From an uncultured Gammaproteobacteria bacterium (GTDB lineage: Bacteria; Patescibacteriota; Microgenomatia; UBA10105; UBA927): a stretch of DNA of 64,000 nucleotides. Below are positions 14,360-44,443 of this stretch, piece after piece. The notes below the pieces were generated by a model. That model ran no database searches. It was not told where the DNA came from and saw only the letters and a program-made list of their open reading frames with translations. Within the stretch, counting starts at the first letter, position 1. Every line of letters begins with the position of its first letter. The DNA is taken from assembly GCA_964349125.1 (NCBI GenBank), contig CAYGFH010000001.1, positions 772,801 to 836,800 of the forward strand. The letters run 5' to 3'. A program made the translations under genes and the position numbers.

Positions 14360-14569
14360 ATGTGTATAAATATTCCACAAACTGTGGTACATATAGAAGA
14401 TAAGAAAGCAACAATGTCGGACGGACGAATAGTTCGGATATCCTTGGTGCCTGACGTTCAGGTAGGGGATTGTTTGGAAGTGTATGGTGACATTGCACTT
14501 GCTAAATTAGATAATGTACATCACACGCATACAGGTGTACCCAAGTATAAAAAAAGGAGAACAACATGA
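14360..14569 (+). CDS. hypC: hydrogenase maturation factor HypC/HupF family
   Basis: Starts MCINIP (MC[LI].[IV]P). VGD..LVH-like block VGDCLEVYGDIA. Confidence 0.7.
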   Translation: MCINIPQTVVHIEDKKATMSDGRIVRISLVPDVQVGDCLEVYGDIALAKLDNVHHTHTGVPKYKKRRTT

Positions 14570-15453
14570 AAAAAGGAATTCAATTGGCCATATTAACAGC
14601 GGGGATTTCAGGCGTATCCATATTTGCAAATGGCATATTCGTTAGTCGCACGGATCCACTCGTGTTTGCGTTTGTCCGCAACGTTGTCGTACTTGTATTC
14701 TTAAGTATTTGGATGGGTATCAGCTCACAGGTCTCACATGTACGGGCATTAACCGCGAAACAGTGGGGGATGTTGGTTCTGATAGGCGTAGTTGGAGGCG
14801 GAATTCCCTTTGCACTTTTTTTCAGGGGATTAGCTGAAATTGGTGCAGTGAATGGGAATATTATACAAAAAACACTGTTTATATGGGTCGCACTTATGGC
14901 GGTACCGTTACTGGGCGAGAGAATACATCGGATGCAAAGCATAGGATATGCGTTGCTACTCGCCGGTATGTTTTATTTTGGCGGCGGAATCGCTGTAGTT
15001 CCTAAAACGGGAACCTGGCTTGTCCTTGGCGCAACAGTGTTATGGGCAGTTGAACAGATTATCGCTAAGCGTACCCTGACCCATGTTCCTCCTGTCATCG
15101 TTGCCTGGGGAAGAATGTTGTTTGGTGTCCCTATGCTTTTCGCCGCAATTGGTGTTCTTGGGAAAATTGGTCTATTGAGTCAACAGCCTACGTACGCAGT
15201 TGTACCACTCACGGTGAGTGCTGTACTTCTCACTCTGTATATGACCACGTGGTATAGCGCTCTAAAAACAGCTCCTGCAGTGCTTGTTTCATCGGTTTTG
15301 GTATCAGCGCCTGTGGTTACAGCGCTGTTAACACGATTTGTGCTTCAAAAACCCTTTAAGGAGGGTCAAATGGTATCTCTCACATTGCTCGTGGTTGGCG
15401 TGCTCTTCATCCTTGGTGAGTACATAAAACGATCAAAAACAAAACAGGCATGA
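14566..15453 (+). CDS. EamA/DMT family transporter
   Basis: Ten TM helices with a duplicated EamA-like architecture. Confidence 0.65.
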   Translation: MKKGIQLAILTAGISGVSIFANGIFVSRTDPLVFAFVRNVVVLVFLSIWMGISSQVSHVRALTAKQWGMLVLIGVVGGGIPFALFFRGLAEIGAVNGNIIQKTLFIWVALMAVPLLGERIHRMQSIGYALLLAGMFYFGGGIAVVPKTGTWLVLGATVLWAVEQIIAKRTLTHVPPVIVAWGRMLFGVPMLFAAIGVLGKIGLLSQQPTYAVVPLTVSAVLLTLYMTTWYSALKTAPAVLVSSVLVSAPVVTALLTRFVLQKPFKEGQMVSLTLLVVGVLFILGEYIKRSKTKQA

Positions 15454-16190
15454 ATGCTGACGCTGGCATTGTCATGTGCAGCAAGTACGCGTTTGCTCCG
15501 AATATATATCATTACTGTGGTCCCGAAAAACAGTCTGATTTACTCGGATATGTACAGGAAGGACACTCCGATAAGGGACTTGTCGAGATACTTTCACAGT
15601 TTGAGACACTGTATAACTACCTCGTGCTCATCGCATCAGAAAATCATATACCCAATCCATTTGACGCACGTGTGGTAGAGGCGTATTGGTTGGGAAATCA
15701 GTTAACCACGAAAGTAAAAACATCCTCACTGCTACGGATGGTGGACGAAGAATTACTGATTCTGAAAAAGCTACCCATAGGTGCATTTCCACATATTGCA
15801 CAGTCGCTTGTGAGTCACGGACTACCTACCCATACTGACCACGTAGTATCTGTTTTTATCCGCACCGGGCACCATGCCATTGCCCATACAATATCTACGA
15901 TGGATCAATGCCGTATTAGCTGGGGAAAAGTGGTACAAAAAACAGAAGAACAATCAATGACCCACGATCAATGGATAGTAAAAATGCGACATCTGGAATA
16001 TAAGGGAGAAAAACTGTCTCTTGGTGTCCCCATTGAAACAATTGTAACTGGTACTGGTATATCGCTCCAACCTGGGGATTGGGTAAGTACTCATTGGGGA
16101 TATATATGTGACAAACTAACACCCTCCCAAGTACGAAATGTAGCTGTGTACACACGGCGAGCGCTCATGTATGCTGCAAATCAGATATGA
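15450..16190 (+). CDS. hypothetical protein, possibly hydrogenase-associated
   Basis: Lies between hypC/eamA and the endopeptidase gene. No motif recognised. Confidence 0.45.
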   Translation: MNADAGIVMCSKYAFAPNIYHYCGPEKQSDLLGYVQEGHSDKGLVEILSQFETLYNYLVLIASENHIPNPFDARVVEAYWLGNQLTTKVKTSSLLRMVDEELLILKKLPIGAFPHIAQSLVSHGLPTHTDHVVSVFIRTGHHAIAHTISTMDQCRISWGKVVQKTEEQSMTHDQWIVKMRHLEYKGEKLSLGVPIETIVTGTGISLQPGDWVSTHWGYICDKLTPSQVRNVAVYTRRALMYAANQI

Positions 16191-16576
16191 GTATCTATTG
16201 TTTTGGAAACACAATTGATTCCGGTGATTATATCCCTGTGCAGCTGATTCCTATACTCCGAAAAGAATTTCCTGCGGTATCGGTCATACATTTGGATCCA
16301 TCAGAGAATTTTATACCCGAACATGCAAGCGTGCTCATCGATTCTGTAGAGGGTGCTTCTACTGTACAGATGTTTTCGGATATAGATGCATTTGTCATTA
16401 CCAAAAGTGTGTCCGTACATGATTACGATCTGGGTCTCCATCTTCAACTCTTAAAAAAACTTCATAAACTGCCGAAAATACGTATTATCGCAGTACCCAG
16501 ATATTCCTCAATTATGCAGGTGAGGAATGAAGTGATAGCCCTGCTACGCAGCATTCTACATGAGGAAGGTAAATAG
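16187..16576 (+). CDS. hydrogenase maturation endopeptidase (HyaD/HycI family)
   Basis: Blocks CFGN..D.GDYIP, IDSVEG, DIDAFVI and SVHDYDLGLHLQLL are colinear with HybD/HycI. Confidence 0.6.
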   Translation: MSIYCFGNTIDSGDYIPVQLIPILRKEFPAVSVIHLDPSENFIPEHASVLIDSVEGASTVQMFSDIDAFVITKSVSVHDYDLGLHLQLLKKLHKLPKIRIIAVPRYSSIMQVRNEVIALLRSILHEEGK

Positions 16577-19130: not shown

Positions 19131-20423
19131 TTAATTGTGAATTTTCAGTTTTAGGAAGTGTGTGGCACAGGACATGCACGGGTCATATGCACGGATAATT
19201 TTTTGAATCTCCAGCTCCAACTCTTCTTTGGTGAGACCCGTATTCTTTGACACCCAATCGGCAATAGCGATCTCAATGCCAATTTGATTTTGTCCCGTTG
19301 GAACGATAACTTTTGAATTTTTCACTTTCCCATCCACAGTCATTTCCACACGGTGAAAGAGCGTGCCACGGGGAGCTTCTATGATACCGATGCCGGTTGC
19401 TTCTTTTGGTGTATATGCCACCGGTGTCTCAGGCGTGCCAGTATATTGATGAATAAGCTCAATACTCGCATCTATGCTGTGAAGCATCTCTATAGCTTGA
19501 GCGAGATTATTGTGATAGATGTTTGTAGACGGAAACAGTGAGAGTGCAGAAGCCGCATCACGTTTTGTGTGATCATGGAGTGCATTTTTATTTAAGTTTA
19601 TCCGAGCAAGCGCTCCCACAAAATGAACATGGCCATCAAATAGATATCCGGTTGCATGAGAATAGGGGATATCCTGAGGATTCAAATGGGATTGGAATGC
19701 TTCAGGTGGAATCTTCACACCATCACTTGAAACAACTGTGCCATCTAAAAATGAAAAATCATCATTTATGGATGCGAGAAATTTGAGCTCCTGGTGGAGC
19801 GTAAACGTACAACGCTCAAATACTGAAATAAGGCGGAGTATCCTGGAGCGAATGTCCTCTAATTCAGGAAGAAGTGCCATGAGGCTTTCTTTTTTCGGGA
19901 TTTCATTGAACCCACCGACAGCGAGTAGTGGCGCATGGACTGCCCGTCCACCGGAAAGAACGCTGAGCTTATTCCCGACCTCTTTAACGGCAAAACAGTC
20001 ATGCACAAGCGCGTGCTCTTCTTCGTTTGTCTCATCGAAAGCAAGTATGGATTCCCGATTGTATAAGTCAGGAAGGACAAATACGTACAGATGGAGTCCA
20101 TGGTCCCTGATCATGAGTCCATAGTTGAGTAATTTCCGAAGTAAAGACGTCTGTGCGGAAGGAAGAATGGATAGACCATGTTCAACCGATGCGATACTTG
20201 CAAGTAAATGTGCATTGCTGCATGTGCCACAAATACGTGCCAGAAGGTGGGGAAGATTGGTCGCCGTTTTTCCTCTCACCGCCTCTTCAAAGAATCTCTG
20301 CATTTCCACAATTCCAAAGTGGCATTCTTCCAACACCCCGTTACGTATTTTTATATCCACTGAGGCTGTACCTTCTATTTTGGTTATTTCTTCAATTGTG
20401 AGATCTAGATTTTGATTGTGCAT
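19131..20423 (-). CDS. [NiFe]-hydrogenase large subunit, probably cytoplasmic group 3-like
   Basis: N-terminal RICGTCSNAH and C-terminal DPCMSCATH nickel-binding motifs. Start taken at MHNQ, 4 nt after the small-subunit stop; the ORF track extends it to 20537. Confidence 0.85.
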   Translation of the reverse strand: MHNQNLDLTIEEITKIEGTASVDIKIRNGVLEECHFGIVEMQRFFEEAVRGKTATNLPHLLARICGTCSNAHLLASIASVEHGLSILPSAQTSLLRKLLNYGLMIRDHGLHLYVFVLPDLYNRESILAFDETNEEEHALVHDCFAVKEVGNKLSVLSGGRAVHAPLLAVGGFNEIPKKESLMALLPELEDIRSRILRLISVFERCTFTLHQELKFLASINDDFSFLDGTVVSSDGVKIPPEAFQSHLNPQDIPYSHATGYLFDGHVHFVGALARINLNKNALHDHTKRDAASALSLFPSTNIYHNNLAQAIEMLHSIDASIELIHQYTGTPETPVAYTPKEATGIGIIEAPRGTLFHRVEMTVDGKVKNSKVIVPTGQNQIGIEIAIADWVSKNTGLTKEELELEIQKIIRAYDPCMSCATHFLKLKIHN

Positions 20424-20427
20424 AGAT

Positions 20428-20955
20428 TTAGGGAGCAGGGCGTAGGGGAGAGGGGGTAGCTGTTCCTGATCCCTCTTTGGATACGATACCAAACTCAACA
20501 AGGTATTTGTCCAACAGATCCAGAAATGGTTTCTCATTCATAGGGCACCCATTTACCTCGTCGTCAACAGTGACAACTTGACGAAGAAATTTTACCCGTT
20601 CAGCCTGTTTGAACCGAAGTAGTAGCGATGCTATTTCCTCTTTGGTGGGTGCATCAAATCTGTTTCTCTGACCACTCGGGAGGGCGCTACATGCGCACGA
20701 GCCAATGGCAACAAGCTTTGTCGCGAGGCTTCGAATCTTTTTTAATTTTTCTTCATGCTCGGCTGACATAATCGCGCCTTCAACAAACGCCACATCCATG
20801 GGTTCCCATTTGTTTGTATTTTGAAGTACTTTGGCGTGAATAAAATCTATATTCCGTTTCCATGACTCCCACCTTGTGTTCATGAGTTCTGTAAATACAA
20901 TTGTAGAGTCTTCACAGCAGGTAAACGTGAACCATCCGACACGAAGTTTTTTCAT
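20428..20955 (-). CDS. [NiFe]-hydrogenase small subunit (short, no Tat signal)
   Basis: FTFTCCEDS and GSCACS Fe-S cluster Cys motifs. 175 aa. No RRxF twin-arginine motif. Confidence 0.8.
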   Translation of the reverse strand: MKKLRVGWFTFTCCEDSTIVFTELMNTRWESWKRNIDFIHAKVLQNTNKWEPMDVAFVEGAIMSAEHEEKLKKIRSLATKLVAIGSCACSALPSGQRNRFDAPTKEEIASLLLRFKQAERVKFLRQVVTVDDEVNGCPMNEKPFLDLLDKYLVEFGIVSKEGSGTATPSPLRPAP

Positions 20956-21037: not shown

Positions 21038-21664
21038 TTATTTCGCATTTGCCACAGCTGCATCAACCTCTCGAGTTAGATCATCAAAGCTTGAAAGGTT
21101 GAGTTTTTTCCCATTTAAAAAGAATGTGGGTGTCGAATTAACACCAAATCGCGTGCCATCCGCCTGATCATTTGCGACGCGGTTTGTTAGGGCACTCGAT
21201 TTCATATCTGCCTCAAATTTTGCGGCATCAAGGGAGAGCTGTTTTGCGAGATCAGTAAATATGGTATCAGAAAATTTTTCCTGACTTGCGAATAATTGCT
21301 CATACATTTCCCAAAATTTCCCTTGTGCTCCTGCAGATTCTGCCGCTTGAGCAGCTTTCCTTGCGAACGGATGTTGGTCAAGAGGGAAGTGACGATACAC
21401 AAATAACATACTGTCTTTATGTTTTGCCAGAATTGCATCGACGGTTGGTTTTACTGCCAGACAGGCGGGGCACTGAAAGTCCGAAAACTCCACAAGTACT
21501 ACGTTCGCAGAAGGGTTGCCCTTTACGTACGAGTCTTTTGACATTACTTCTTCTGATGTGAACGTCGGTGCCGGTTTTGTAAGTACAACAGATGCTATGC
21601 CAATAATAACGACACTGATGGCAATGATCCCAAAAAAAAGTTTGGATTCGTTAGTTAGTTTCAT
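21038..21664 (-). CDS. DsbA-like thiol:disulfide oxidoreductase, membrane-anchored
   Basis: N-terminal TM. CPAC active site (FSDFQCPACL). Confidence 0.75.
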   Translation of the reverse strand: MKLTNESKLFFGIIAISVVIIGIASVVLTKPAPTFTSEEVMSKDSYVKGNPSANVVLVEFSDFQCPACLAVKPTVDAILAKHKDSMLFVYRHFPLDQHPFARKAAQAAESAGAQGKFWEMYEQLFASQEKFSDTIFTDLAKQLSLDAAKFEADMKSSALTNRVANDQADGTRFGVNSTPTFFLNGKKLNLSSFDDLTREVDAAVANAK

Positions 21665-25187: not shown

Positions 25188-25619
25188 ATGAAAAATATGA
25201 TGGTTATTCTTCTGGTAATCGCCGTGCTCGGTGGAGGATATTATGCGCTCAGTGGCAAAAAATCTGACTCAATGGCTCCTGCTACTGATTCTATGATGGA
25301 AAAAGCTCCTGAATCGACCGGTGCGGTGATGCAGGTCGGTGAAGTGAAGGAGTTTGCCGTTGATAGTTTTGAAATGGGCTTTTCACTCAAGACTTTAACC
25401 GTAAAAAAAGGTGATACGGTGAAAATTACGCTAACAAATTCCGGTAAATATACGCATGATTGGGTAGTGGATGAATTCAGTGCCAGAACCAAAGTCATAA
25501 AAAATGGAGAAACCGACAGCATAACATTTGTAGCTGACAAAACCGGCTCATTTGAATACTATTGCAGTGTCATGACGCACCGACAGCAGGGGATGGTTGG
25601 CAAGTTGATAGTCGAATAA
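25188..25619 (+). CDS. cupredoxin-like (type-1 copper) domain protein, membrane-anchored
   Basis: N-terminal TM. His...Cys-x-x-x-x-His...Met ligand pattern (YTHDW, YYCSVMTHRQQGM). Confidence 0.6.
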   Translation: MKNMMVILLVIAVLGGGYYALSGKKSDSMAPATDSMMEKAPESTGAVMQVGEVKEFAVDSFEMGFSLKTLTVKKGDTVKITLTNSGKYTHDWVVDEFSARTKVIKNGETDSITFVADKTGSFEYYCSVMTHRQQGMVGKLIVE

Positions 25620-25658
25620 TACGACTTAGCCAAAACGAACATACAGAAAAACAATAAA

Positions 25659-25687
25659 ACGCTCTCGAAAGAGGGCGTTTTTTTTGC
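25659..25687 (+). terminator. rho-independent terminator after cupredoxin gene
   Basis: CGCTCTC-gaaa-GAGGGCG stem followed by a 9-T tract. Confidence 0.75.
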
Positions 25688-25791
25688 CGTGTGTAGACTA
25701 AATTCTGTCGGGAGAATGCCGGTGTGAAGCATACCGAAGGCAGACCCATTCTCACACATACAATAGTGTTGATGGGTGTAGGAACGGAGTA

Positions 25792-25947
25792 TTAAACAAA
25801 ACGGCGGACAGCCGTATTGGGATCTGCAGAATCAGCTGATGCTGTCGTATCGTTTGCTTCGTCGGTATCCAATGAGATTTCTTCCACGATAAATTTTCGT
25901 TGTTCTGCATCGTAATACATAATGCGTGCTCCATTTGTACGGTTCAT
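25792..25947 (-). CDS. small acidic protein (51 aa) with strong RBS, below ORF-track cutoff
   Basis: AAAGGAGGTG lies 7 nt upstream of the ATG at 25947. TAA at 25792-25794. Confidence 0.35.
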   Translation of the reverse strand: MNRTNGARIMYYDAEQRKFIVEEISLDTDEANDTTASADSADPNTAVRRFV

Positions 25948-25968
25948 ATATTCACCTCCTTTCTGCCC

Positions 25969-25994
25969 AAAAAAAACTCCCTGTTTTGAGGGAG
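25969..25994 (-). terminator. intrinsic terminator-like hairpin plus U8 in the 5' leader of the small ORF (minus strand)
   Basis: CTCCCT-caaaac-AGGGAG then TTTTTTTT on the minus strand, directly 5' of the RBS. Confidence 0.55.
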
Positions 25995-26113
25995 TGTTCG
26001 ATTCGCTCGCGTAGTTTGTTGTTTACGCCGTCGAACAATCCCTCATTCGAAGGGATGTCTGTTTGACGATTGTAATGCAAAAAAATGCGCGCGAATTCAT
26101 AGCTTCTAAAAAG

Positions 26114-26142
26114 AGTATAGTCCGCACTATCGTGTTAGTCAA
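26114..26142 (-). promoter_or_regulatory. minus-strand promoter TTGACT-17-TATACT (divergent from csoR)
   Basis: Reverse-strand TTGACT (26137-26142) and TATACT (26114-26119). Confidence 0.45.
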
Positions 26143-26165
26143 GTGTAATGAACAGAACACACCAC

Positions 26166-26195
26166 TTGACATCTTACCTATACCCATGGTATAGG
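26166..26195 (+). promoter_or_regulatory. csoR promoter (TTGACA, extended -10 TGgTATAGG)
   Basis: TTGACA at 26166-26171, 18-nt spacer, TATAGG at 26190-26195. The ATG lies 8 nt further on, so the transcript is near-leaderless. Confidence 0.5.
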
Positions 26196-26197
26196 TA
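26175..26197 (+). promoter_or_regulatory. putative CsoR operator: perfect 10-bp inverted repeat TACCTATACC-cat-GGTATAGGTA
   Basis: Perfect palindrome overlapping the -10 region. Its TACC...GGTA ends resemble known CsoR boxes. Confidence 0.6.
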
Positions 26198-26202
26198 TAC
26201 GT

Positions 26203-26490
26203 ATGGCAATAAAACAAAATGCATCTCATAAACAATCAACAATAATTAGCTTCAAAAAAGCACGGTCACTGCTGGATACCATTATATCTATGGTGGAGCA
26301 AGACGAATATTGTGTCGGCATTATGCAACAGAATCTTGCGGCCATTGGACTACTTAAATCAGCGCATGAACAGGTGATGAAAGATCATTTGGAAACATGC
26401 TTTGTTGAGGGTGTACAAAAGGGTGGGGCAAAAAAACAAAAAGAACTTATCGAAGAGCTGCAGACATTAATGAAACTATACAATAAATAA
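26203..26490 (+). CDS. csoR: CsoR/RcnR family metal-sensing transcriptional repressor
   Basis: DUF156 fold. Ligand residues Cys (DEYC), His (KDH) and Cys (ETC) are in the expected positions. Confidence 0.8.
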   Translation: MAIKQNASHKQSTIISFKKARSLLDTIISMVEQDEYCVGIMQQNLAAIGLLKSAHEQVMKDHLETCFVEGVQKGGAKKQKELIEELQTLMKLYNK

Positions 26491-26510
26491 ATGGTTACTA
26501 AAGGAGGAAT

Positions 26511-27077
26511 ATGAAACAACATGTCCACATAGTATATGTAGCAGTAGCACTGATAGTTGGGATTGCAATAGGGTTTAGTGTGACGCCGGAGTATGCACAG
26601 ATGAAATCTGAGAAGCAAAGTCCCATGATGAGTATCGGCAGAGCTGATAAATATGTCGATCTCCGGTTTATTGACGGGATGATTGCACATCACCAGGCGG
26701 CTATCTATCTAGCGCAACAGGCGAAAGAACATTCAAAACGATCTGATATTCAGGCGCTTGCAAGTACCATTATCGCCGTTGACACGGAAGGAATTGAAAA
26801 ACTATATACCCTAAAGAAAACATGGTTTGGCAATACAAAAAAAATCTCCCAATTTACGAAAGTTCAGCTGGGATCGGCGGATGACCAGTTTGATCTGCGT
26901 TTTATAAACGCACTGGAAGCGCATCATGAGGAGGCGATAGACGTTGCAAAAGAGATGCAAACGAAGTCAACCAGAAGCGAGGTGCTCACCCTTGCGGGTG
27001 ATGTTATCGCAGGGCTGTCGGCTGGCATTAAAACATTGACGGAGTGGAGAGGAGACTGGTATGGAATCAACAAATAA
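26511..27077 (+). CDS. DUF305 domain protein (CopM-like periplasmic copper-binding)
   Basis: Duplicated DLRFI..MI.HH..AI motifs. N-terminal TM. Confidence 0.75.
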   Translation: MKQHVHIVYVAVALIVGIAIGFSVTPEYAQMKSEKQSPMMSIGRADKYVDLRFIDGMIAHHQAAIYLAQQAKEHSKRSDIQALASTIIAVDTEGIEKLYTLKKTWFGNTKKISQFTKVQLGSADDQFDLRFINALEAHHEEAIDVAKEMQTKSTRSEVLTLAGDVIAGLSAGIKTLTEWRGDWYGINK

Positions 27078-29358
27078 GCAAAGAGTGTTACCTGTTCGCG
27101 GCATGCACTGTGCAAGCTGTGCAAACATCATTACCAAGCGCCTGAAAAAAGTCCAAGGGGTTTCAGATGTGTCAGTAAATTTTGCAACAGAAAAGGCGTC
27201 TGTAACATATGATTCCGAGCACGCATCAGTCGCGTCTTTGAATGAATCTATTGCTCCCCTCGGCTATTCACTGGTAGATGAGACAGTGAAGGAAACGGCT
27301 TCCAAAGGTTCCGGAAATACTACGGTAGACCATGCGCATCACGCACAAACAGACGAAGATATGGATCGTGCATACAATGAAATGCAGCAGACATTACCAT
27401 TCTCTTTACTTGTATTTGCGGCAATGTTATGGGAAATCTCATCGTCAGTATTTCCCGGGGTTCCTCCTGTGCCTGTTCCCATGACGTTTTTTACGTTGAT
27501 ACTGGCAGTTATCTCCTCGGGAATTTTGTTTGGTCCGGGATTTCAATTTATTTCAGCTATCGGCAAGTTTCTTACCTATAAAGTTGCAAACATGGATACG
27601 CTGATCGGAATTGGAACGCTTGTTGCCTACGTGTACTCTATGATTCGTATTGTGTTTCCTCAAACGCTCACCTCGTTGAGATTTGATGAAACGGTGTATT
27701 TTGATGTCGTTGTGGTTGTCATCGGGTTTATTAAATTGGGCAAATATCTGGAAATTCGTTCAAAACGAAGAACCGGTGAAGCACTGAAAAAACTAATGCA
27801 GCTTCAGGCAAAGACCGCCGTTGTAAAGCGGGGCTCCGTTGAGCTGGAGCTTCCCATTGAGCAGGTGAACGTTGGCGATATTGTGTTGGTGAAGCCGGGA
27901 AGCTCAATTCCTCTTGATGGTGATGTAGTGTCCGGGGAATCATCCGTTGACGAATCCATGGTGACAGGAGAGTCGCTTCCAGTGGATGTTTCGAAAGGAT
28001 CGCATGTCATAGGATCGACTATGAATATGCAGGGCGCACTCACTGTCCGAGTCACGCGGGCTGTTGCTGATACCGTGCTTTCCCGTATTATGACTATGGT
28101 ATCCGAGGCGCAGGGGTCTAAAGCTGCCATAGAAAAGATCGTCGACAAGGTATCCGGAGTATTTGTTCCGACAGTGCTAATTGTTGCTGCGTTTTCTGCA
28201 CTCGTATGGATTGTTATCGGTTCGGTGTATATAACGCTATCCCAATCTATTGTATTTGCAATTACCTCTGTAGTGGGGATTCTGGTGATAGCCTGTCCGT
28301 GTGCGTTAGGATTGGCAACACCGACGGCAATTATCGTTGCGGTGGGCCGTGCGGCTGGTTTGGGAATTCTTATAAAAGACGCTGATAGTCTGGAGAAGCT
28401 GCACAGTGTAACTGCTGTTGTGATGGATAAAACGGGCACCATAACGCACGGGAAGCCGGCAATCACAGATATCGTGCCAAACGGGAAAACAGGCGCTCAA
28501 TCGCTCATGCGGATACTCGCGTCACTTGAAGCACTCTCAGAGCATCCGCTTGCCAATGCAATAACAGCATATGCGAAGGAACATATAATTACTATTGCTC
28601 CGGTGAAGTCATTTAAAGCCGTAGGTGGACGGGGTGTGCATGGTGACATTGATGGAATTCGGTATATTGCAGGGAATGCCGCGTATATGAGCGAATCAGG
28701 TGTGATTGGTGCATCCGTCGACAGCAGTGCCTATACCAATCAGGGTAAGACACCACTCTTTGTCGCCAAAGGCAAAACGTTTTTGGGTGTTGTGTATGTC
28801 GCAGACAGCGTGAAGCCCGATGCTGCTTTGTCTGTTTCAACACTCAAAAAGCTTGGTATTGAAGTGATAATGGCAACAGGAGATGAAAAGCGTACCGCAG
28901 AGTATATTGCACAACAGGTCGGCATTTCCAGAGTCGAAGCACATGTGGATCCCCAGAAAAAATTTGATATTGTCAAAGCTCTTCAAAAAGAAGGACATAT
29001 TGTTGCGATGGTTGGGGATGGAATAAATGATGCGCCGGCGATTGCAGCTGCTGACATAGGTATTGCCATGAGTACCGGCACTGACGTGGCGATCAGCACG
29101 GCGAATATTACTCTCTTGCATGGCGACATAGCAAAATTGACCCATGCTATCGCATTGTCGAAAAAAACAATGCAAATTATAAAAGAAAATCTCTTTTGGG
29201 CGTTTATTTACAATATCGTTGGAATTCCGCTTGCAGCAGGTGTGCTCTATCCGTTCACCGGAGTCTTTTTAAGCCCGGCGTTTGCGGGGCTTGCTATGGC
29301 GGGAAGCAGCGTGTCGGTTGTAACAAATTCTCTGAGACTAAAGAAAATTAGGATATAA
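27061..29358 (+). CDS. copA: copper-translocating P1B-type ATPase
   Basis: N-terminal HMA GMHCASC. CPC motif, DKTGT, GDGINDAP. Confidence 0.9.
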   Translation: MESTNKQRVLPVRGMHCASCANIITKRLKKVQGVSDVSVNFATEKASVTYDSEHASVASLNESIAPLGYSLVDETVKETASKGSGNTTVDHAHHAQTDEDMDRAYNEMQQTLPFSLLVFAAMLWEISSSVFPGVPPVPVPMTFFTLILAVISSGILFGPGFQFISAIGKFLTYKVANMDTLIGIGTLVAYVYSMIRIVFPQTLTSLRFDETVYFDVVVVVIGFIKLGKYLEIRSKRRTGEALKKLMQLQAKTAVVKRGSVELELPIEQVNVGDIVLVKPGSSIPLDGDVVSGESSVDESMVTGESLPVDVSKGSHVIGSTMNMQGALTVRVTRAVADTVLSRIMTMVSEAQGSKAAIEKIVDKVSGVFVPTVLIVAAFSALVWIVIGSVYITLSQSIVFAITSVVGILVIACPCALGLATPTAIIVAVGRAAGLGILIKDADSLEKLHSVTAVVMDKTGTITHGKPAITDIVPNGKTGAQSLMRILASLEALSEHPLANAITAYAKEHIITIAPVKSFKAVGGRGVHGDIDGIRYIAGNAAYMSESGVIGASVDSSAYTNQGKTPLFVAKGKTFLGVVYVADSVKPDAALSVSTLKKLGIEVIMATGDEKRTAEYIAQQVGISRVEAHVDPQKKFDIVKALQKEGHIVAMVGDGINDAPAIAAADIGIAMSTGTDVAISTANITLLHGDIAKLTHAIALSKKTMQIIKENLFWAFIYNIVGIPLAAGVLYPFTGVFLSPAFAGLAMAGSSVSVVTNSLRLKKIRI

Positions 29359-29365
29359 TAGATAT

Positions 29366-30397
29366 ATGAACACTATTTGGCTTGCGTTTTTAGCTGGATT
29401 GACAACCGGAGGTATTTCTTGCCTTGCTGTGCAAGGGGGGCTACTGACATCGTCATTGGCCGCTCAGGGTGAAGCATCTGCAGAAGTGTCAGCATCCACC
29501 CGTTTTTCCCGTTTTCAATTTGTTTCAATGTTTTTGCTCGCAAAGTTATTTGCCTACTCTGTGCTTGGGTTTGTGCTTGGATCTATCGGGTCAACCCTGA
29601 CATTATCGCCAAAATTGCTTGGCAGCGTGCAGATAGTTGTCGGCCTGTTTATGCTGGCAACTGCAGCGAGACTGCTCGATATTCATCCAATTTTCCGGTA
29701 TGCCGTTATCCAACCGCCTAAATGGGTGTATCGACTGCTCAAGCGTCAAAGCGTCAATGCGTCAGTGATTACGCCAGCTCTACTTGGGGTGTTAACCGTA
29801 TTAATGCCCTGTGGCGTTACTCAGGCGACCATGGCTGTGGCAGTGGCCAGTGGTGACGCGGTGTTGGGGGCTGCAATTATGGGTGCGTTTGTCCTGGGTA
29901 CCAGCCCTCTATTTTTCGCATTGGGTGCCTCTATTGTAGAGCTCTTACAGAGGCGCTCATTCGTATTTGTCGCCGCGAGTATCGTTGCACTATTTGGTGT
30001 CGTTTCAATAAATGGTGGATTAGGGCTTCGTGGTTCTATATTTACACTGCAGAATTTCTATAAAGCAGCAACCACAGATGTCAGCGTACGCTCAAACAGT
30101 GGAACAATGCCTGTTATGACCCCCGACGGATTTCAGGATGTAAAAATTACAGTCGCAGATTTCGGATACACTGCCTCGTCAAACACATTGAAGGTTGGTA
30201 TTCCTGTGCGGGTAACGCTTGCAACAAAAAGAACTCAAGGGTGTGCCAGGGCGTTTACAGTGCCGGACTATGGAATTTCCAGAATACTTCCTGAAACCGG
30301 GGAGGAAGTCGTTGAATTTACGCCTAAAAAAACGGGGAGACTCGCGTATAGCTGTAGTATGGGCATGTATACGGGGGAGTTTACGGTGATTAATTAG
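29366..30397 (+). CDS. DsbD_2/CcdA-like transmembrane domain fused to C-terminal cupredoxin-like domain
   Basis: AFLAGLTTGGISC and LMPCG TM cysteines. C-terminal Y.CSMGMY ligand-like pattern. Confidence 0.55.
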   Translation: MNTIWLAFLAGLTTGGISCLAVQGGLLTSSLAAQGEASAEVSASTRFSRFQFVSMFLLAKLFAYSVLGFVLGSIGSTLTLSPKLLGSVQIVVGLFMLATAARLLDIHPIFRYAVIQPPKWVYRLLKRQSVNASVITPALLGVLTVLMPCGVTQATMAVAVASGDAVLGAAIMGAFVLGTSPLFFALGASIVELLQRRSFVFVAASIVALFGVVSINGGLGLRGSIFTLQNFYKAATTDVSVRSNSGTMPVMTPDGFQDVKITVADFGYTASSNTLKVGIPVRVTLATKRTQGCARAFTVPDYGISRILPETGEEVVEFTPKKTGRLAYSCSMGMYTGEFTVIN

Positions 30398-30718: not shown

Positions 30719-31042
30719 ATGACAGACATAAACATAACCGATGCAAATTTTGAGAGTGACGTGCTCAAATCCGATAAACCGGTATTAGTGGATTTTTGGG
30801 CAGTGTGGTGCGGACCGTGCCAGGTACAAGGCCCGATTGTTGATGAGATTGCAAAAGAGTTTGCAGGAAAAGCTGTTGTGGGGAAAATGAATGTGGATGA
30901 AAATCCATCTGTCCCACAACAATTTGGCATTATGAGTATTCCTACCCTTATGATTTTCAAAGGCGGAAAAGTGGCGAAGCAATTTGTCGGCGTGCAATCA
31001 AAGGCAACACTGGTCGCGGAGCTTACTAAACTGGTAAGTTAA
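30719..31042 (+). CDS. trxA: thioredoxin
   Basis: WCGPC active site. Confidence 0.9.
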   Translation: MTDINITDANFESDVLKSDKPVLVDFWAVWCGPCQVQGPIVDEIAKEFAGKAVVGKMNVDENPSVPQQFGIMSIPTLMIFKGGKVAKQFVGVQSKATLVAELTKLVS

Positions 31043-31127
31043 GGGATTGTTGTCATTGCGAGCGAAGCGTGGCAATCTATCCGAGATTGCTTCATCGAAG
31101 ACTTCTGGCAATGACATGGAGATATGT

Positions 31128-32048
31128 ATGAATGACGTAATAATCATAGGTTCAGGTCCGGCAGGCTATACAGCTGCGCTGTATACCTCTCGCGCGTTTC
31201 TAAAGACACTGATGCTGACCGGTGTGCAACAAGGCGGGCAGTTGACCACGACCACAGAAATAGAAAATTTCCCCGGCTTTCCCAAAGGCATACTCGGTCC
31301 ACAGCTCATGGTGGATATGAAGGCTCAGGTGGAGCGTTTTGGAACGGAAATTGAAACGGCTACGGTGACCGGTGTAGTCAAAGATGAAGCGCGAGGTGTT
31401 TTTATTGTCACTGCTGATGGAAAAACATACGATGGAAAAACCGTAATAGTCGCCACGGGTGCATCTGCTATGTACTTAGGTCTTCCTTCCGAGGAAAAGC
31501 TGAAAGGAAAAGGGGTTTCCGCCTGTGCTACGTGCGACGGATTTTTCTTCAGAGGAAAAGAAGTGGTCGTACTTGGAGGAGGAGATACCGCAATGGAGGA
31601 AGCCAATTTTCTGACCACATTTGCCACAAAAGTAACCCTTATTCACAGGCGTGATGAATTTCGCGCAAGTCCCATCATGGTTGATCGGGTAAAAAAGAAT
31701 CCAAAAATCTCACTACTTCTGAATAAAACAGTAGAAGAAATGGTAGGGGAACAGTCTGTCACCGGGATTCGACTGAAGGATGTGAAAACCGGAGAATCCA
31801 TGGTGTATCCGACCCAGGGTATTTTTCTGGCTATTGGCCACAAACCAAGTACTGAATTTTTGAAAGGTGTTGTTGATCTCGATGAAAAAGGATACGTCAC
31901 CATCAAAAGCCATACGGAGACATCTATCCCAGGGATATTTGCAGCAGGGGACTGCGTGGATCACCGGTACCGCCAGGCAATTGTTGCAGCGGGTCAGGGT
32001 TGTATGGCCGCGCTAGATGCACAAAAATACTTGGAAGAGCTTACATAA
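31128..32048 (+). CDS. trxB: thioredoxin-disulfide reductase
   Basis: GSGPAGYTAA FAD-binding site. CATC redox-active site. Start moved to MNDVIIIGSG; the track ORF begins 27 codons earlier. Confidence 0.85.
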   Translation: MNDVIIIGSGPAGYTAALYTSRAFLKTLMLTGVQQGGQLTTTTEIENFPGFPKGILGPQLMVDMKAQVERFGTEIETATVTGVVKDEARGVFIVTADGKTYDGKTVIVATGASAMYLGLPSEEKLKGKGVSACATCDGFFFRGKEVVVLGGGDTAMEEANFLTTFATKVTLIHRRDEFRASPIMVDRVKKNPKISLLLNKTVEEMVGEQSVTGIRLKDVKTGESMVYPTQGIFLAIGHKPSTEFLKGVVDLDEKGYVTIKSHTETSIPGIFAAGDCVDHRYRQAIVAAGQGCMAALDAQKYLEELT

Positions 32049-32051
32049 TGT

Positions 32052-32762
32052 ATGGATAGGCCAAAACCGCAAAAATATCACGCTGTTATAGAGAAAAAAG
32101 AGCAACTGACGGAGTTTGTCTATCTTGTGACGTTCAAGCTCATATCTCCGACAGAGATTACGTTTCTCGCCGGACAAACATTTATGCTCAATGTTGCCCC
32201 GGGTATCAACAGAACAATGTCTATATCCTCGGCTCCTTCCGACAAACAAACCATTTTGATGTGTCATGATGTCTCTCCCGGCGGCCCCGGGAGCAAATGG
32301 ACACGTGCCCATGGCGTAGGGGACACCGCGACGTTTATGGCTCCTCTTGGGATGTTTATCTTGGATACGGAAAGTCATCGTAGAAAAGTACTTGTGGCTA
32401 CAGGTACTGGTATAGCGCCGTATCGGTCTATGCTATTGGATTATTTGTCTCATGACGGTACAGATGACATCACCTTGTATTGGGGAATGCGGCATGAAGA
32501 AGACTTGTATTGGATGAGTGAATTTCAGGAATTGTCGATCAAATACCCAAATTTTCGATTTGTCGTCTGCTTATCTCAGCCATCCTCGTCATGGCAGGGA
32601 GCAAAAGGGAGAGTGACAGAGCATGTGGTACAAGAGGAATTGAATATTGAGCGAAGTGATGTCTATCTCTGCGGAAATCAACATATGATTAAGGATATGG
32701 AGGGTCAGCTCAAAGAAAAGCAGGTTCCGATACATCAAATCTTCAGAGAGTTATACTTCTAG
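32052..32762 (+). CDS. ferredoxin-NADP reductase-like FAD/NAD(P)-binding oxidoreductase
   Basis: RxYS-like RTMSISS FAD motif. GTGIAP NAD(P)-binding motif. Confidence 0.7.
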   Translation: MDRPKPQKYHAVIEKKEQLTEFVYLVTFKLISPTEITFLAGQTFMLNVAPGINRTMSISSAPSDKQTILMCHDVSPGGPGSKWTRAHGVGDTATFMAPLGMFILDTESHRRKVLVATGTGIAPYRSMLLDYLSHDGTDDITLYWGMRHEEDLYWMSEFQELSIKYPNFRFVVCLSQPSSSWQGAKGRVTEHVVQEELNIERSDVYLCGNQHMIKDMEGQLKEKQVPIHQIFRELYF

Positions 32763-34443: not shown

Positions 34444-35232
34444 ATGGAATATAGTTATCTTTTGCCCGTGCTAGGCTCAATCGGCTTGATTCTGCTTAGC
34501 CTCAGTTTGCACGGACCCGTGCAGACAGAATCGGAGGTCATTATGGATGAAGGCGGGACATCCGTAATGTACTACCTAGTTCAAACTACCAAGTATGCAA
34601 ACACGGCGGTCTCGTTTGTGTTGATGGCGCTGATGACGCTATTGGTAGTTGATGTATATGTTCCTGGCATGCGTGCAATGGCAGATGCTTTTATCGGTCC
34701 GTATATATGGTGGATGGTATGGATTCCGGCGTTTAACGTCGCATCATCCGTTATTGTATGGGCGATATTTTTCGGCTATAGCGTGCGTCGATTTGGAACT
34801 CTCCGCCCTAATTATGAACATTGGGATGAGTTTCAGGAGCGTTCCCGGAGGACTACCAACACGACCTGGATCAACATTAATGGTCAAAATTGGAATCCGT
34901 TCCAACGCACACAGAAAGCATCGCTTTCGACGCGAGCATCAACCCGCACTTCTTCCAAAGCTAAAGGGAGTTCAAGATCAAGCAGTACCTTGTTTGTTCC
35001 CATGGCGTTGCCAAGCTCGAGGAGCACGACCTCACTTAAGCGGAGCTCCCGTTCCAGCTCATCATCCGGTGATAGCGACTGGGTGAAAATTCTGGCACAG
35101 TTGGGAATTTTCCTTCTGGCGATTCTCGTATTCATTGCCTACGGATTCCTTGCGTGGAAATTCAACGATGGAATCATGGATTTCTGGGACGAAGTGTTCG
35201 TGGAGGATGAATTCGCCATCGCGTCAGAATAA
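34444..35232 (+). CDS. membrane protein with Ser/Arg-rich low-complexity loop
   Basis: About five TM helices. RSSRSSSS low-complexity stretch. Confidence 0.5.
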   Translation: MEYSYLLPVLGSIGLILLSLSLHGPVQTESEVIMDEGGTSVMYYLVQTTKYANTAVSFVLMALMTLLVVDVYVPGMRAMADAFIGPYIWWMVWIPAFNVASSVIVWAIFFGYSVRRFGTLRPNYEHWDEFQERSRRTTNTTWININGQNWNPFQRTQKASLSTRASTRTSSKAKGSSRSSSTLFVPMALPSSRSTTSLKRSSRSSSSSGDSDWVKILAQLGIFLLAILVFIAYGFLAWKFNDGIMDFWDEVFVEDEFAIASE

Positions 35233-35435
35233 TGTACGAAAAAACGGTATCTGCAAGTTTTCCGCCAAATCCAGATGGCGTAGTTGTTTACTCATCATAA
35301 ATCACTGCGCTATCTGGTCCGTTTTAATACCTCATAGTATTGACTATATACTTACTTATTTGATATACTCTTGCAGTTTCTCATTTTAGTAAAAAAAGGT
35401 TTTTTGCAACCTATAATTTTCTTTGATTGGAAACA

Positions 35436-35459
35436 ATGCACATTTACAGTACAAGAGTA
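35436..35459 (+). repeat. partial copy (3' 24 nt, 2 mismatches) of the 316-bp repeat, upstream of gene A
   Basis: ATGCACATTTACAGTACAAGAGTA versus the repeat end ATGCACATTAACAGTTCAAGAGTA. Confidence 0.6.
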
Positions 35460-35642
35460 GTTTAAGTATCCATATACGTGGGACGCACTAGAGGTAGGAG
35501 AGCTTTTTCTCTTACGTTTGTGCGTCTCAATAATTCCATCTTTTTTACACCAGGAGGTGAACCGTTCCAAAAAGTAAGTTTGTATGTAGTACGTTCGTAT
35601 GCACCAAAAATTGATTCAACTAATAGAAAAGGAAAAAATCGT

Positions 35643-36326
35643 ATGGATACCGTAATTGCAAAAACACGTTTGATCGGTTTGGGCGTCATCAATGATGCAT
35701 TTGACTGGGCGATTGACTCCATCTTTGATCTGACGGTGCTTCGTCAGAAGGGGCGTGACCTGGACAAGGTCATCAAGCGCGTCAATCTCATTCAGGACGG
35801 CGTGAACGCCCGCGTTAACGATCTGAATAAGTGGCTCAAGAGTGCCCGCAGGCACGCCAAAGAATTGGATCGCGATATTACCACCATCCTCAAAGACGGG
35901 GATGAATCAAATGATAGCGATGCCGTCCTCCTGCAGGCTGAACTGACGCCTCTTTTGGAGGAAATCGAAAAGCGCGATGGCAAACTCCAGGAAGCAATTA
36001 AGTCGCGAGACGAAAATCAGGAAATGCTCGACTTCCTGGCTCTGCGCCTCAAGCAAGTGACCGATAAGGTCCGCGAACTGACCGAGACCAAGCAAGAGAC
36101 CAAAACGCTCGAAGAAGCGGCAACTGCTGTCGAAAGCACTGAAGATGTTCTTAAGGAAACCGACGGCTTCCAGAATATCGGAGCCCGCATTCTAGAGAAG
36201 AACGGTCGCGCACGCCAGCGTTATGAACGGGTCACTGCCTCTGTCCAGGAATTGAGTGGCAAGGATTCCACACTGGCTGCCGCTCGCGCTAAGATCGCCG
36301 CTCGCAAGGAAGGTCTCACGAAATAG
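35643..36326 (+). CDS. coiled-coil protein, tentatively PspA/IM30-like
   Basis: Almost entirely helical heptad-like sequence. RBS AAAAGGAAAAAA upstream of the internal ATG at 35643. C-terminal block loosely PspA-like. Confidence 0.45.
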   Translation: MDTVIAKTRLIGLGVINDAFDWAIDSIFDLTVLRQKGRDLDKVIKRVNLIQDGVNARVNDLNKWLKSARRHAKELDRDITTILKDGDESNDSDAVLLQAELTPLLEEIEKRDGKLQEAIKSRDENQEMLDFLALRLKQVTDKVRELTETKQETKTLEEAATAVESTEDVLKETDGFQNIGARILEKNGRARQRYERVTASVQELSGKDSTLAAARAKIAARKEGLTK

Positions 36327-36343
36327 TTTTGCATTTCCATTGT

Positions 36344-36659
36344 TTGGAACTACTCTTGAACGAAATGGATAGTTCGAGGATGCAAGCAATGTCCTCCGGA
36401 GGACATTGACGTCGTGAGACAGTCAGTGTTGGTGCCATTAAGGTACCTTGGGATACAGATGATTTGTGATGTGTCGAATTTTATCGACGCCCCATAGACC
36501 ATCCGTATTCCACCCTCTGCAAACTACGGATGTGTATCCGTACTGATGAGTCCAAAAGGACGAATTTGCAGAAAGAAAAGAATCAAGAAATTATGACACC
36601 ACTCCATAGTCGGGGAGTGCGGTCGTAATCGACTGATGCACATTAACAGTTCAAGAGTA
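36344..36659 (+). repeat. 316-bp structured intergenic repeat, copy 1
   Basis: Identical to 38116-38431. 11-bp terminal inverted repeat TACTCTTGAAC/GTTCAAGAGTA. Internal hairpins include CAATGTCCTCC|GGAGGACATTG and competing ATCCGTA/TACGGAT/ATCCGTA. Confidence 0.9.
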
Positions 36660-36802
36660 GTAATAGTAAAACTGGATATGGGTCGATACAAGAATATACT
36701 TCAATGTATGTCTTTGTATCGTCCCATTTTCAGTTGAAGATACGGATGAATATTCGACTTGTTCGAAGCACCGCTGGAATTATCAAAAAAACTACCCAGG
36801 AG

Positions 36803-38104
36803 ATGACCCCCATGAAAGATATCCGTGCTCGATTGTTGACGCTTTTTTTGCTATGTATCTTAGCAGCGTCTGTCGTCCCCACGAATGCCCGCGCGCAATC
36901 CGCGTGTGATAATGGCATTATCGTGGATGAGACCAATTCCCTCAATGTGCAGAAAGTCTGCGAGGCAATGAAGTTGCTGGCACAGAGAGGCGTGGTAGTC
37001 GGTCTGTTTATATCGGATGAACGGTTCGGTTCGGATGATGAGTGGTATGTGCGCGTTGATGATGTGCAGGTAGAGACTCAGGCACGGTTTCCCCAAGTCA
37101 TTGATAGTGTTGAGCGAATCGAACTGCATCAAAGCGGCTACTTTCTCTCAATAGGAGTTGTTGAGGGAGAAATGACTGCAACGCTTGACATCGGTGGAAC
37201 CTTCGGTTCAGATACACCGATTCATACCGCTGATAAGAACGTAAAACAACAGGTGCTTACGGCAATGACAAGTAATGATCCAACGGAAGGTATTGTTGGA
37301 GCGTTCACCGAGGCATACAACGTCGCATATCCTCCCGATCAACCGTTCTCCATGCCGACGTCACAGCCTACTGCAACGCCCCGTCCTCCCGTGGACATGA
37401 AACCCGTTCGAAACTTTTTTGCCGGGTTTGCGGTGTTGGTGATTTTTGCGGTCGCAGGTTGGCTGTTTATCCGCTTTGGCGTTCCTGTGCTTTCGGAACT
37501 CAACTACCTCAAGGTGCTCATAGACCGTACCGGTGAAATCGTTCGTCAGGCAAATCTAGTGCTCGCGGGCGACGAACCTGAAGGAACCCTCCTTTATAGC
37601 CGCATGGAGGCTAACGGTCTTCATGAATATGCAGATATCGAAACGGCGGCTGTCGAGGCAATCCGCAGGACAATGCGCAAAATCGAGCTTGTCATGAGCA
37701 ATCGCAAGATGCTTTTGGACAACGATAAAGAAGGTGTTCGCACTTTATCCTATCGGGAACGTGTTGAGCAGTTGGAGCTTATCTATCTTAAGCTCATAGG
37801 CACGAGCAATACCGTGCTTGAGATGACGGAGGCAGAAATCGCTGAGCTCCTCCACCCCATGATGGGATTCACTCAGGCGGAAGCTGAGACAGATCCGGAC
37901 GTCCGTGCACTCCAATCTCAATCTCGCTTGCTCGAAGGAAAACCCCTGACAGTGAAAATGCGATACACGGAAATTCGTAATGTCACTGAGGCAGGAATCC
38001 TCATCGATATTAAAAACCTGAAGGCACAGCTTGCTGAATTGCGCGACGCGAAAATAGAAGATCGTCCAGCGGTGAACGTCTTTACAAAACGCACGCGTAA
38101 ATAA
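36803..38104 (+). CDS. TPM-domain membrane protein (YgcG-like)
   Basis: Signal peptide, TPM-like block (IVDETNSL...VVVGLFISDE...RIELHQSGYFLSIGVVEG), one TM, then a cytoplasmic helical domain. Start moved to ATG 36803 after RBS CCAGGAG. Confidence 0.55.
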   Translation: MTPMKDIRARLLTLFLLCILAASVVPTNARAQSACDNGIIVDETNSLNVQKVCEAMKLLAQRGVVVGLFISDERFGSDDEWYVRVDDVQVETQARFPQVIDSVERIELHQSGYFLSIGVVEGEMTATLDIGGTFGSDTPIHTADKNVKQQVLTAMTSNDPTEGIVGAFTEAYNVAYPPDQPFSMPTSQPTATPRPPVDMKPVRNFFAGFAVLVIFAVAGWLFIRFGVPVLSELNYLKVLIDRTGEIVRQANLVLAGDEPEGTLLYSRMEANGLHEYADIETAAVEAIRRTMRKIELVMSNRKMLLDNDKEGVRTLSYRERVEQLELIYLKLIGTSNTVLEMTEAEIAELLHPMMGFTQAEAETDPDVRALQSQSRLLEGKPLTVKMRYTEIRNVTEAGILIDIKNLKAQLAELRDAKIEDRPAVNVFTKRTRK

Positions 38105-38115
38105 CAGCACTGCGC

Positions 38116-38431
38116 TTGGAACTACTCTTGAACGAAATGGATAGTTCGAGGATGCAAGCAATGTCCTCCGGAGGACATTGACGTCGTGAGACAGTCAGTG
38201 TTGGTGCCATTAAGGTACCTTGGGATACAGATGATTTGTGATGTGTCGAATTTTATCGACGCCCCATAGACCATCCGTATTCCACCCTCTGCAAACTACG
38301 GATGTGTATCCGTACTGATGAGTCCAAAAGGACGAATTTGCAGAAAGAAAAGAATCAAGAAATTATGACACCACTCCATAGTCGGGGAGTGCGGTCGTAA
38401 TCGACTGATGCACATTAACAGTTCAAGAGTA
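38116..38431 (+). repeat. 316-bp structured intergenic repeat, copy 2
   Basis: Identical to copy 1 as read by eye. Confidence 0.9.
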
Positions 38432-38642
38432 TACATGTTGGTGATTGGACTACAAAATAGGAACAGAAAGTTTCATTTTTTTCTGGGCCTGTTAGTAGTC
38501 CAATATCAAATCCATTCTATTTCCAAGACAAGGAGCATGATCACGACCAATAATCAAAGGGGCGGTTCGCACTTAATTAAGTAAGCCTGGTCAGCTGAAC
38601 AATGGTGATATTTGAAACAAAAAAATCAATGTGGAGCAGAAA

Positions 38643-40706: not shown

Positions 40707-40764
40707 TAAAATGAACAATGGCCATCCCGCCGCCGAGGCGAGGATGGATCTTTTGTTCTCTGCA

Positions 40765-44095
<3,331 letters not shown>

Positions 44096-44325
44096 AACAA
44101 AGGTTTGATCCCCGATTATATCGGGGTGAAACTCTGTTCAGATACGAATTTTCTGTGTAGGAGCCATTTTGGTTATCCCTTACGGAGCAATTACTTGAGT
44201 GTGTGATGTCATTTACAAAATTTATATGAAGATCTCTGAAGGTATCCCGTTTCACGGGATAGTTCACAGTATGCTTTTTCTCTAGGAATCGAAAAAGCAA
44301 CTGTTCACTAACCGCTTTAGAGTCT

Positions 44326-44443
44326 TCCAGTCTTTTGAGCGACGTGGTACCACCCGATCCCTTTCCGAACTCGGAAGTGAAACGCGTTAGCGCCGACAAT
44401 ACTTGATTCGCGAGAATCTGGGAATATAGGTCAAGGCTGGGGG
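44326..44443 (+). rRNA. 5S ribosomal RNA
   Basis: CCGAACTCGGAAGTGAAACGCGTTAGCGCCGA loop C/helix III consensus. Helix I CCAGTCTT/AAGGCTGG. Confidence 0.8.

Follow-up and report, generated by a model that had tools for sequence, protein, structure and literature searches.

How a [NiFe] hydrogenase reduced to two subunits acquires its metal center, and to what it passes its electrons, is the question raised by a pair of genes in a 64,000-nucleotide stretch (hereafter the window) of contig CAYGFH010000001.1 (assembly GCA_964349125.1, positions 772,801 to 836,800), which derives from an uncultured bacterium placed by GTDB in the Patescibacteriota. To our knowledge, known [NiFe] hydrogenases are all thought to require HypC, HypD, HypE, and HypF for their Fe(CN)2(CO) center, and group 3 enzymes are thought to require built-in diaphorase or F420 modules. 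The locus probably encodes a "hyd2"-type hydrogenase, belonging to an offshoot of group 3b that is specific to the Candidate Phyla Radiation (CPR) and DPANN archaea, and is served by a helper operon and a separate electron partner. An initial sequence-only reading of the window had proposed a minimal cytoplasmic [NiFe] hydrogenase of two subunits, a description that holds, both genes being intact, both metal-binding motifs being present, and a twin-arginine translocation (Tat) signal being absent.

Relatives of the enzyme were gathered by scanning genome representatives with an alignment of the large subunit, which returned more than 587 related stretches and revealed a family with a wide distribution among ultra-small bacteria and archaea. 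The best 80 loci, whose hosts comprise many Patescibacteria classes as well as DPANN archaea, were compared; a set of 82 loci consists of these 80 and two earlier finds that are duplicates of loci among the 80. Residue conservation was assessed in an alignment of 13 diverse relatives for the large subunit (alignment A1, 53-84% identity) and in 70 relatives for the cysteines of the small subunit. Within the window, Pfam scans covered the main open reading frames (ORFs), most of them of at least 100 aa, and the Escherichia coli HypA-F proteins served as phmmer queries against all six frames.

The large subunit holds a complete nickel-iron site. Its L1 motif (ARICGTCSNAH, residues 62-72) and its L2 motif (DPCMSCATH, residues 414-422), the latter followed by an 8-residue tail (FLKLKIHN), contain the cysteines C65, C68, C416, and C419, which are invariant among the 13 relatives, as are E17-G18 and P351-R352-G353. 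Both hydrogenase genes have intact reading frames on the minus strand. The mechanically called ORF of the large subunit extends to position 20537, a longer frame that is regarded as an artifact because all but one of the relatives in alignment A1 begin with MH and an independent gene call likewise gives a 430-aa protein; translation truly begins at the ATG at 20423, 4 nt past the stop codon of the small subunit. The retention of the catalytic residues across relatives of 53-84% identity reads as purifying selection. A relic that is decaying or no longer catalytic, as with the Ehr proteins of CPR bacteria and their lost metal ligands, would fit the very reduced host genome and a neighborhood in which HypD, HypE, and HypF were not found, but it is very improbable in view of the intact reading frames, the invariance of the four metal-binding cysteines and of the catalytic Glu and Arg in relatives down to 53% identity, and the retention of a dedicated protease and chaperone in most loci. 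Nor are the genes pseudogenes, an outcome that the sequence-only reading had named as a refutation.

The small subunit matches only Oxidored_q6 in Pfam, and its N-terminus (MKKLRVGWFTF / MKKLRVGWFTFTCCEDS) has no twin-arginine motif, the cluster motif beginning at residue 13; together, the two subunits form a cytoplasmic heterodimer. The family signature of the small subunit is CCEDS (C13, C14, E15, and D16), whose tandem cysteines recall the CC motif of NuoB, and the remaining ligands are C87 and C137 (GCP). Among the 70 relatives, C13, C87, and C137 never vary, C14 is kept in 93%, and E15 and D16 are kept in 99%. A cysteine after the GCP motif is absent from 68 of the 70, so that the medial and distal clusters are missing and only a proximal [4Fe-4S] cluster can be bound, with CCEDS replacing the usual CxxC. 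The subunit is present and short in all 82 loci, with a family median of 165 aa.

Among solved structures, the closest relatives of the enzyme are the group 3b sulfhydrogenase 1 (SH1) of Pyrococcus furiosus and Hyh of Thermococcus kodakarensis (PDB 9nez, 9e15, and 5yxy), which are likewise cytoplasmic. The large subunit can be aligned over its full length with the alpha subunit of SH1 (184.6 bits) and scores 182.6 bits against T. kodakarensis HyhL, its similarity to groups 3c (133 bits) and 3d (108 bits) being weaker, while its best NCBIfam matches are the sulfhydrogenase alpha families ShyA/HydA, albeit far under the equivalog cutoffs (225.8 vs. 700). SH1 also carries a short tail after the DPCxxCxxH motif (VVRL, 4 residues), and the N-terminal two-thirds of its delta subunit align with the window small subunit, which covers residues 2-151 of this 256-261-aa protein and then ends. 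In contrast to these enzymes, the window encodes no beta or gamma subunit, and its small subunit lacks the ~100-residue region of the medial and distal clusters and has CCEDS as its first cluster motif rather than the SCYGC of SH1. A single proximal [4Fe-4S] cluster that passes electrons straight to a partner module is shared with HoxY (189 aa; group 3d, PDB 5xf9) and with NuoB-type subunits (group 4/complex I), although similarity to HoxY is weak (28 bits) and the window contains neither HoxFU nor membrane modules.

The resemblance of the large subunit to sulfhydrogenase alpha subunits, in both family and structure matches, would also be expected of a conventional group 3b sulfhydrogenase with its beta and gamma (diaphorase) subunits encoded elsewhere, yet this explanation is considered highly unlikely. 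The small subunit stops where the medial/distal region of the P. furiosus delta subunit starts and, lacking further cysteines, could not hand electrons on to a beta subunit by the known route. Of the features of a group 3b heterotetramer, the large-subunit affinity was found, and neither beta and gamma genes in the operon nor a three-cluster delta subunit of ~240-260 aa was. Pfam scans detected no sulfhydrogenase beta or gamma subunit in the 64-kb window, and gene clustering of the 82 loci, with their uniformly short small subunits, recovered no beta/gamma-like family that is conserved next to the enzyme. These results bear out the observation of the sequence-only reading that partner subunits are missing nearby, the 64 kb having yielded neither a diaphorase nor a ferredoxin gene, and they speak against a standard class with partners encoded at a distance, which that reading had named as a refutation. 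The published analysis of CPR enzymes is of the same view (Jaffe et al., 2020; PMC7304191).

That analysis divided the group-3b-related enzymes of CPR bacteria into hyd1 and hyd2 (Jaffe et al., 2020; BMC Biol, PMC7304191). According to that study, hyd1 enzymes have a full small subunit together with beta and gamma subunits; in hyd2 enzymes the small subunit is truncated throughout (mean 164 aa), a hypC-like family lies in the vicinity, beta and gamma subunits are not clearly present, PF07992 flavoproteins are occasional, and their "function remains uncertain" (Jaffe et al., 2020; PMC7304191). The window enzyme shares with hyd2 the CPR host, the group-3b-related large subunit, the short small subunit (175 aa), the hypC-like neighbor, and the lack of clear beta and gamma subunits, and some of its relatives likewise have a PF07992 flavoprotein nearby. 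No essential difference from hyd2 is apparent, and, judged by its features, the enzyme is not of a new kind but a member of the published CPR hyd2 clade. The searchable text and supplements of that study contain no description of an EamA-DUF6390-protease module, of alternative accessory sets, or of DPANN members, and literature searches on DUF6390, on HypC-HydE/HydG in CPR bacteria, and on later hyd2 work gave nothing relevant.

The helper operon (14360-16576) consists of the genes for a HypC-type chaperone, an EamA transporter, a DUF6390 protein, and a HycI-like protease, each overlapping the next by 4 nt, and forms a dedicated, translationally coupled unit. The hypC gene had been recognized by the sequence-only reading, correctly so, its Pfam score exceeding the gathering cutoff (Table 1). 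The encoded protein begins with MCINIP and has Tyr (EVYG) at the position of the conserved His51 (VHxG motif); this His is absent from the stand-alone HypC of DUF6390 loci and present in loci with HypD/E, and L053, L068, and L081 are among those that have it. In relatives, the usual gene order is small subunit, large subunit, and then, in convergent orientation, the genes for the 129-aa protease, DUF6390, EamA, and HypC, an order that is conserved across the 80 loci of diverse Patescibacteria classes and DPANN archaea. Of the helper proteins, the 129-aa protease is found in ~73 and DUF6390 in 51 of the 80 loci; in the set of 82, the corresponding counts are 75 and 53, with EamA in 54-55 and HypC in at least 32. 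Comparison of these sequences identifies a conserved six-gene module of two structural and four helper genes. The EamA and DUF6390 genes of the window are functionally tied, since single-protein fusions of 559-563 aa, with EamA at the N-terminus and DUF6390 at the C-terminus, occur elsewhere (L027:11726-13405 and L076:11633-13324; also P0363). Genes for an Nramp transporter and an MgtE_N/CBS protein sit between the large subunit and the helper operon, an insertion that is confined to this lineage and shared with four other related loci (about 6-8 of 82); a role of this pair in metal supply is possible.

From its family-level similarities, we conclude that the 129-aa protein is a divergent, compact endopeptidase of the HycI/HybD type with a conserved Asp/Asp/His triad, in keeping with the earlier guess of a protease at this position. 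Pfam HycI (PF01750) is matched by 22 of 38 family members (best E 3.8e-5), other families being matched by at most one member each, and the sole PDB match of the family profile is the hydrogenase-2 maturation peptidase. G7, D37-P38, D52, and H78 are invariant in the family, conservation is at least 90% at N8 and D14, and D14, D52, and H78 align exactly to D16, D62, and H90 of E. coli HycI, which we take to be the metal-binding triad of the HycI/HybD structures. A direct hhalign comparison of the family with E. coli HycI alone gives a probability of 1.9%, and the assignment rests on the per-member Pfam matches and the triad. The likely substrate of this predicted protease is the conserved 8-residue tail of the large subunit.

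The DUF6390 protein matches its Pfam family over residues 4-242, and its AlphaFold2 model (predicted local distance difference test, pLDDT, 92.1; predicted template modeling score, pTM, 0.91) comprises a helical domain (1-135), a β-barrel (157-223), and a terminal helix, which corresponds to a helical N-domain (~1-135) and a HypC-like oligonucleotide/oligosaccharide-binding (OB) fold domain (~154-243). The C-terminal domain is HypC-like by several measures: the top three matches of the DUF6390 profile in the PDB are all HypC, alignment to E. coli HypC with hhalign gives an E of 6.5e-5 across the His51 motif, and Foldseek returns OB folds only, among them HypC 2z1c_B (TM 0.57 on target). Within this fold, C154-RISWGKV aligns to the N-terminal MCLAVPGKV and GDWVSxHWG to the GDWVIVHTG of HypC. 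Unlike in HypC, the cysteine is internal rather than N-terminal and is preceded by a 150-residue helical Cys/His domain. Invariant residues of the family are C23-G-P, H128, C154, and H215-W, while C10, H131, and C220 are near-invariant. Foldseek found no solved relative of the helical domain, and the idea that it is a miniature HypD or HypA was dropped, as DUF6390 has no detectable similarity to E. coli HypD or HypA.

The DUF6390 family comprises 844 representative clusters and includes fusions to XRE, PadR, GntR, ArsR, and MarR DNA-binding domains (P0400, P0401, P0426, P0431, P0474, P0484, L090:1468-2499, and L092:342-1852). These fusions to five families of DNA-binding domains, along with those to EamA, point to a role of DUF6390 in binding a ligand or metal. 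DUF6390 is paired with HypC outside the CPR as well, a DUF6390-MarR protein following a hypC gene, and a GntR-DUF6390 protein (L090) is encoded upstream of an ATP-binding cassette (ABC) importer, the same contig having a gene for a hydrogenase small subunit; the PhnS2/Fbp/Thi-like matches of this importer are far under the cutoffs and assign it no substrate. In three other loci (L034:3411-4193, L041:11651-12406, and L042, same position), a protein of 252-261 aa occupies the DUF6390 position between protease and EamA, and was rejected as a DUF6390 relative because it has no detectable similarity and no Pfam match.

By analogy with related loci, the electron partner of the hyd2-type enzyme is probably a separate ferredoxin or flavoprotein. 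A ferredoxin-NAD+ reductase-like flavoprotein of ~415 aa is encoded next to or near the small subunit in ~9 loci, and a single-cluster 4Fe-4S ferredoxin occurs in ~11 loci, including most of those with the flavoprotein; in an Aenigmatarchaeota locus (L074:6276-7796), the small subunit and a thioredoxin-reductase-like flavoprotein form a single fusion protein of 506 aa. From the single cluster, electrons would go straight to a soluble ferredoxin and/or NAD(P)-linked flavoprotein that is encoded separately, so that the enzyme would either dispose of fermentative reductant by releasing H2 or consume H2 in the reduction of a pyridine nucleotide or thiol carrier. During maturation, HypC would deliver the iron group, the protease would trim the 8-residue tail once nickel has been inserted, and DUF6390 and the transporter would supply or sense the cofactor metal through a Cys/His ligand- or metal-binding module, with HypD, HypE, and HypF, if present, encoded elsewhere in the genome. 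The helper operon may in this way explain how such stripped-down enzymes acquire their metal center.

Several observations weigh against this model of a helper operon and a separate partner. No partner gene adjoins the enzyme, the Pfam scans found no ferredoxin in the 64-kb window, and the nearest candidates, a thioredoxin, a thioredoxin reductase, and an FNR-like reductase, lie ~10 kb away, their link to the enzyme being conjectural. The 129-aa protein of the window itself scores 12.9 bits against Pfam HycI, under the threshold of 23, and its single-sequence AlphaFold2 model is unusable (pLDDT 45.8). HypD, HypE, and HypF are lacking from the neighborhood: the six-frame phmmer searches with E. 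coli HypA-F found no HypA, HypB, HypD, HypE, or HypF in the 64-kb window, as the sequence-only reading had noted from the ORF list, the Pfam scans of the main ORFs likewise showed no further Hyp protein, and none of the 51 DUF6390-bearing loci contains HypD, HypE, or HypF.

This last absence can also be read the other way, namely that the hypC-EamA-DUF6390-protease operon is itself a HypD/E/F-independent means of acquiring the Fe(CN)2(CO) center, for example with the DMT transporter importing a precursor that the HypC-like receptor domain in DUF6390 would take up. HypC-EamA-DUF6390 would then be one of three interchangeable accessory sets, along with HypC-D-E-F and HypC-HydE plus HydG, a tentative proposal that is considered unlikely overall. 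The two other sets occur in loci without DUF6390. Three of these (L030, L053, and L088) encode HypC-HypD-HypE beside the same short small subunit, together with HypF in L030 and L088. Two more (L078:6796-9425 and L079:1049-3666) carry, directly upstream of the small subunit, a HypC-HydE fusion of 418-419 aa (TIGR03956, 267 bits vs. 254.6; TIGR00074, 60.8 vs. 48) and a full HydG (566 bits vs. a cutoff of 312). Both score above the NCBIfam equivalog cutoffs of [FeFe]-hydrogenase maturases, which would here have been recruited to a [NiFe] enzyme, and this suggests that the latter receives a tyrosine-derived supply of CO and CN. A mini-version of DUF6390 (166-181 aa) with a HypC-like end is present in six loci without the full protein.

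The accessory-set types are interleaved in a neighbor-joining tree of the large subunits, with HypCDE(F) and HypC-HydE/HydG loci nested among DUF6390 loci, and DUF6390 co-occurs with HypD/E or HydE/G in none of 51 loci, compared with 4 of the 29 loci without DUF6390 (Fisher p = 0.015), a pattern that is suggestive, although not proof, of functional equivalence. The loci are phylogenetically non-independent, which bears on such locus-level statistics, and the same test with 5-kb flanks required gives p = 0.07. Further points in favor of the HypDEF-independent route are that DUF6390 retains the Cys and His positions of HypC while the adjacent stand-alone HypC lacks the His, and that HypB is found beside DUF6390 in one locus (L048), so that DUF6390 is not simply a substitute for nickel insertion. 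None of the top 120 CPR/DPANN HypE proteins shares a contig with DUF6390, an insensitive comparison given that these are 120 of more than 7,997 matches. The evidence for this route is confined to the locus level, and Hyp genes frequently lie apart from those of the structural subunits; moreover, fusions of DUF6390 to DNA-binding domains suit a sensor more than a biosynthetic scaffold, and the chemistry by which CN and CO ligands would be made or imported is not readable from the sequences.

In this family, the enzyme is pared to two subunits and one iron-sulfur cluster, and it usually has a transporter and a HypC-like protein where relatives have HypDEF or HydE/HydG. Should the helper operon be an alternative maturation route, the textbook pathway would change, and a far smaller gene set would be available for producing [NiFe] hydrogenases in other hosts. 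Even on a conservative reading, DUF6390 is for the first time linked to a function, either hydrogenase maturation or the sensing of metal, and the question of the electron partner is narrowed to ferredoxin or flavoprotein carriers.

Table 1. Coordinates of the hydrogenase locus and of other features in the 64-kb window.
Feature	Position	Strand	Basis or remark
HypC-type chaperone, 69 aa, N-terminal MC	14360-14569	+	Pfam HupF_HypC (PF01455), 34.7 bits (gathering cutoff 28.5)
EamA/DMT-family membrane transporter, 295 aa	14566-15453	+	Pfam EamA, 116.6 bits
DUF6390 protein, 246 aa	15450-16190	+	Pfam PF19927, 161.8 bits (cutoff 25)
Putative compact HycI/HybD-type maturation endopeptidase, 129 aa	16187-16576	+	Family-level Pfam HycI matches and triad alignment
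Nramp transporter, 418 aa, and soluble MgtE_N + CBS + PRC-barrel protein, 403 aa	16556-19020	-	Genes overlap by 4 nt
Hydrogenase large (catalytic) subunit, 430 aa	19131-20423	-	Pfam NiFeSe_Hases (PF00374), 112.5 bits (cutoff 25.8)
Hydrogenase small subunit, 175 aa, proximal [4Fe-4S] cluster only	20428-20955	-	Pfam Oxidored_q6, 52.9 bits
DsbA-like protein	21038-21664		Pfam
Two apparently secreted proteins, 338 and 197 aa	22218-23836	-	
Copper-handling cluster	25188-30397		
Thioredoxin, thioredoxin reductase, FNR-like reductase	30719-32762		
Four ORFs	34444-39815		No Pfam match
23S rRNA gene, then 5S rRNA gene	40759-44442		
Group I intron in 23S rRNA gene	43453-43722		

The DsbA-like neighbor singled out by the sequence-only reading is confirmed in its identity by Pfam but not as a part of the hydrogenase system. 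DsbA occurs in 12 and VKOR in 11 of the 82 loci, and both were rejected as functional partners, being incidental, lineage-specific neighbors. Just past VKOR/DsbA lie genes for two apparently secreted proteins, the larger of which is very rich in Cys, Thr, and Ser. Neither matches a Pfam family (scan and precomputed results for the 338-aa protein, precomputed results for the 197-aa protein), and both could be substrates of the disulfide-forming VKOR/DsbA pair.

The copper-handling cluster comprises a cupredoxin, an ORF of ~95 aa at the position held in relatives by a metal repressor of the CsoR type, a P-type ATPase for heavy metals, and a membrane protein that is DsbD-like and has a cupredoxin domain. 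It is followed by genes for a thioredoxin, a thioredoxin reductase that is bona fide (408 bits vs. 343), an FNR-like reductase, and a glutamate dehydrogenase. Cupredoxin, repressor, and redox genes are located near the enzyme in L001 and L002 as well. No 16S rRNA gene was detected in the 64 kb. Farther along, beyond the four ORFs without a Pfam match, the 23S rRNA gene is interrupted by a group I intron and is succeeded by a 5S rRNA gene.

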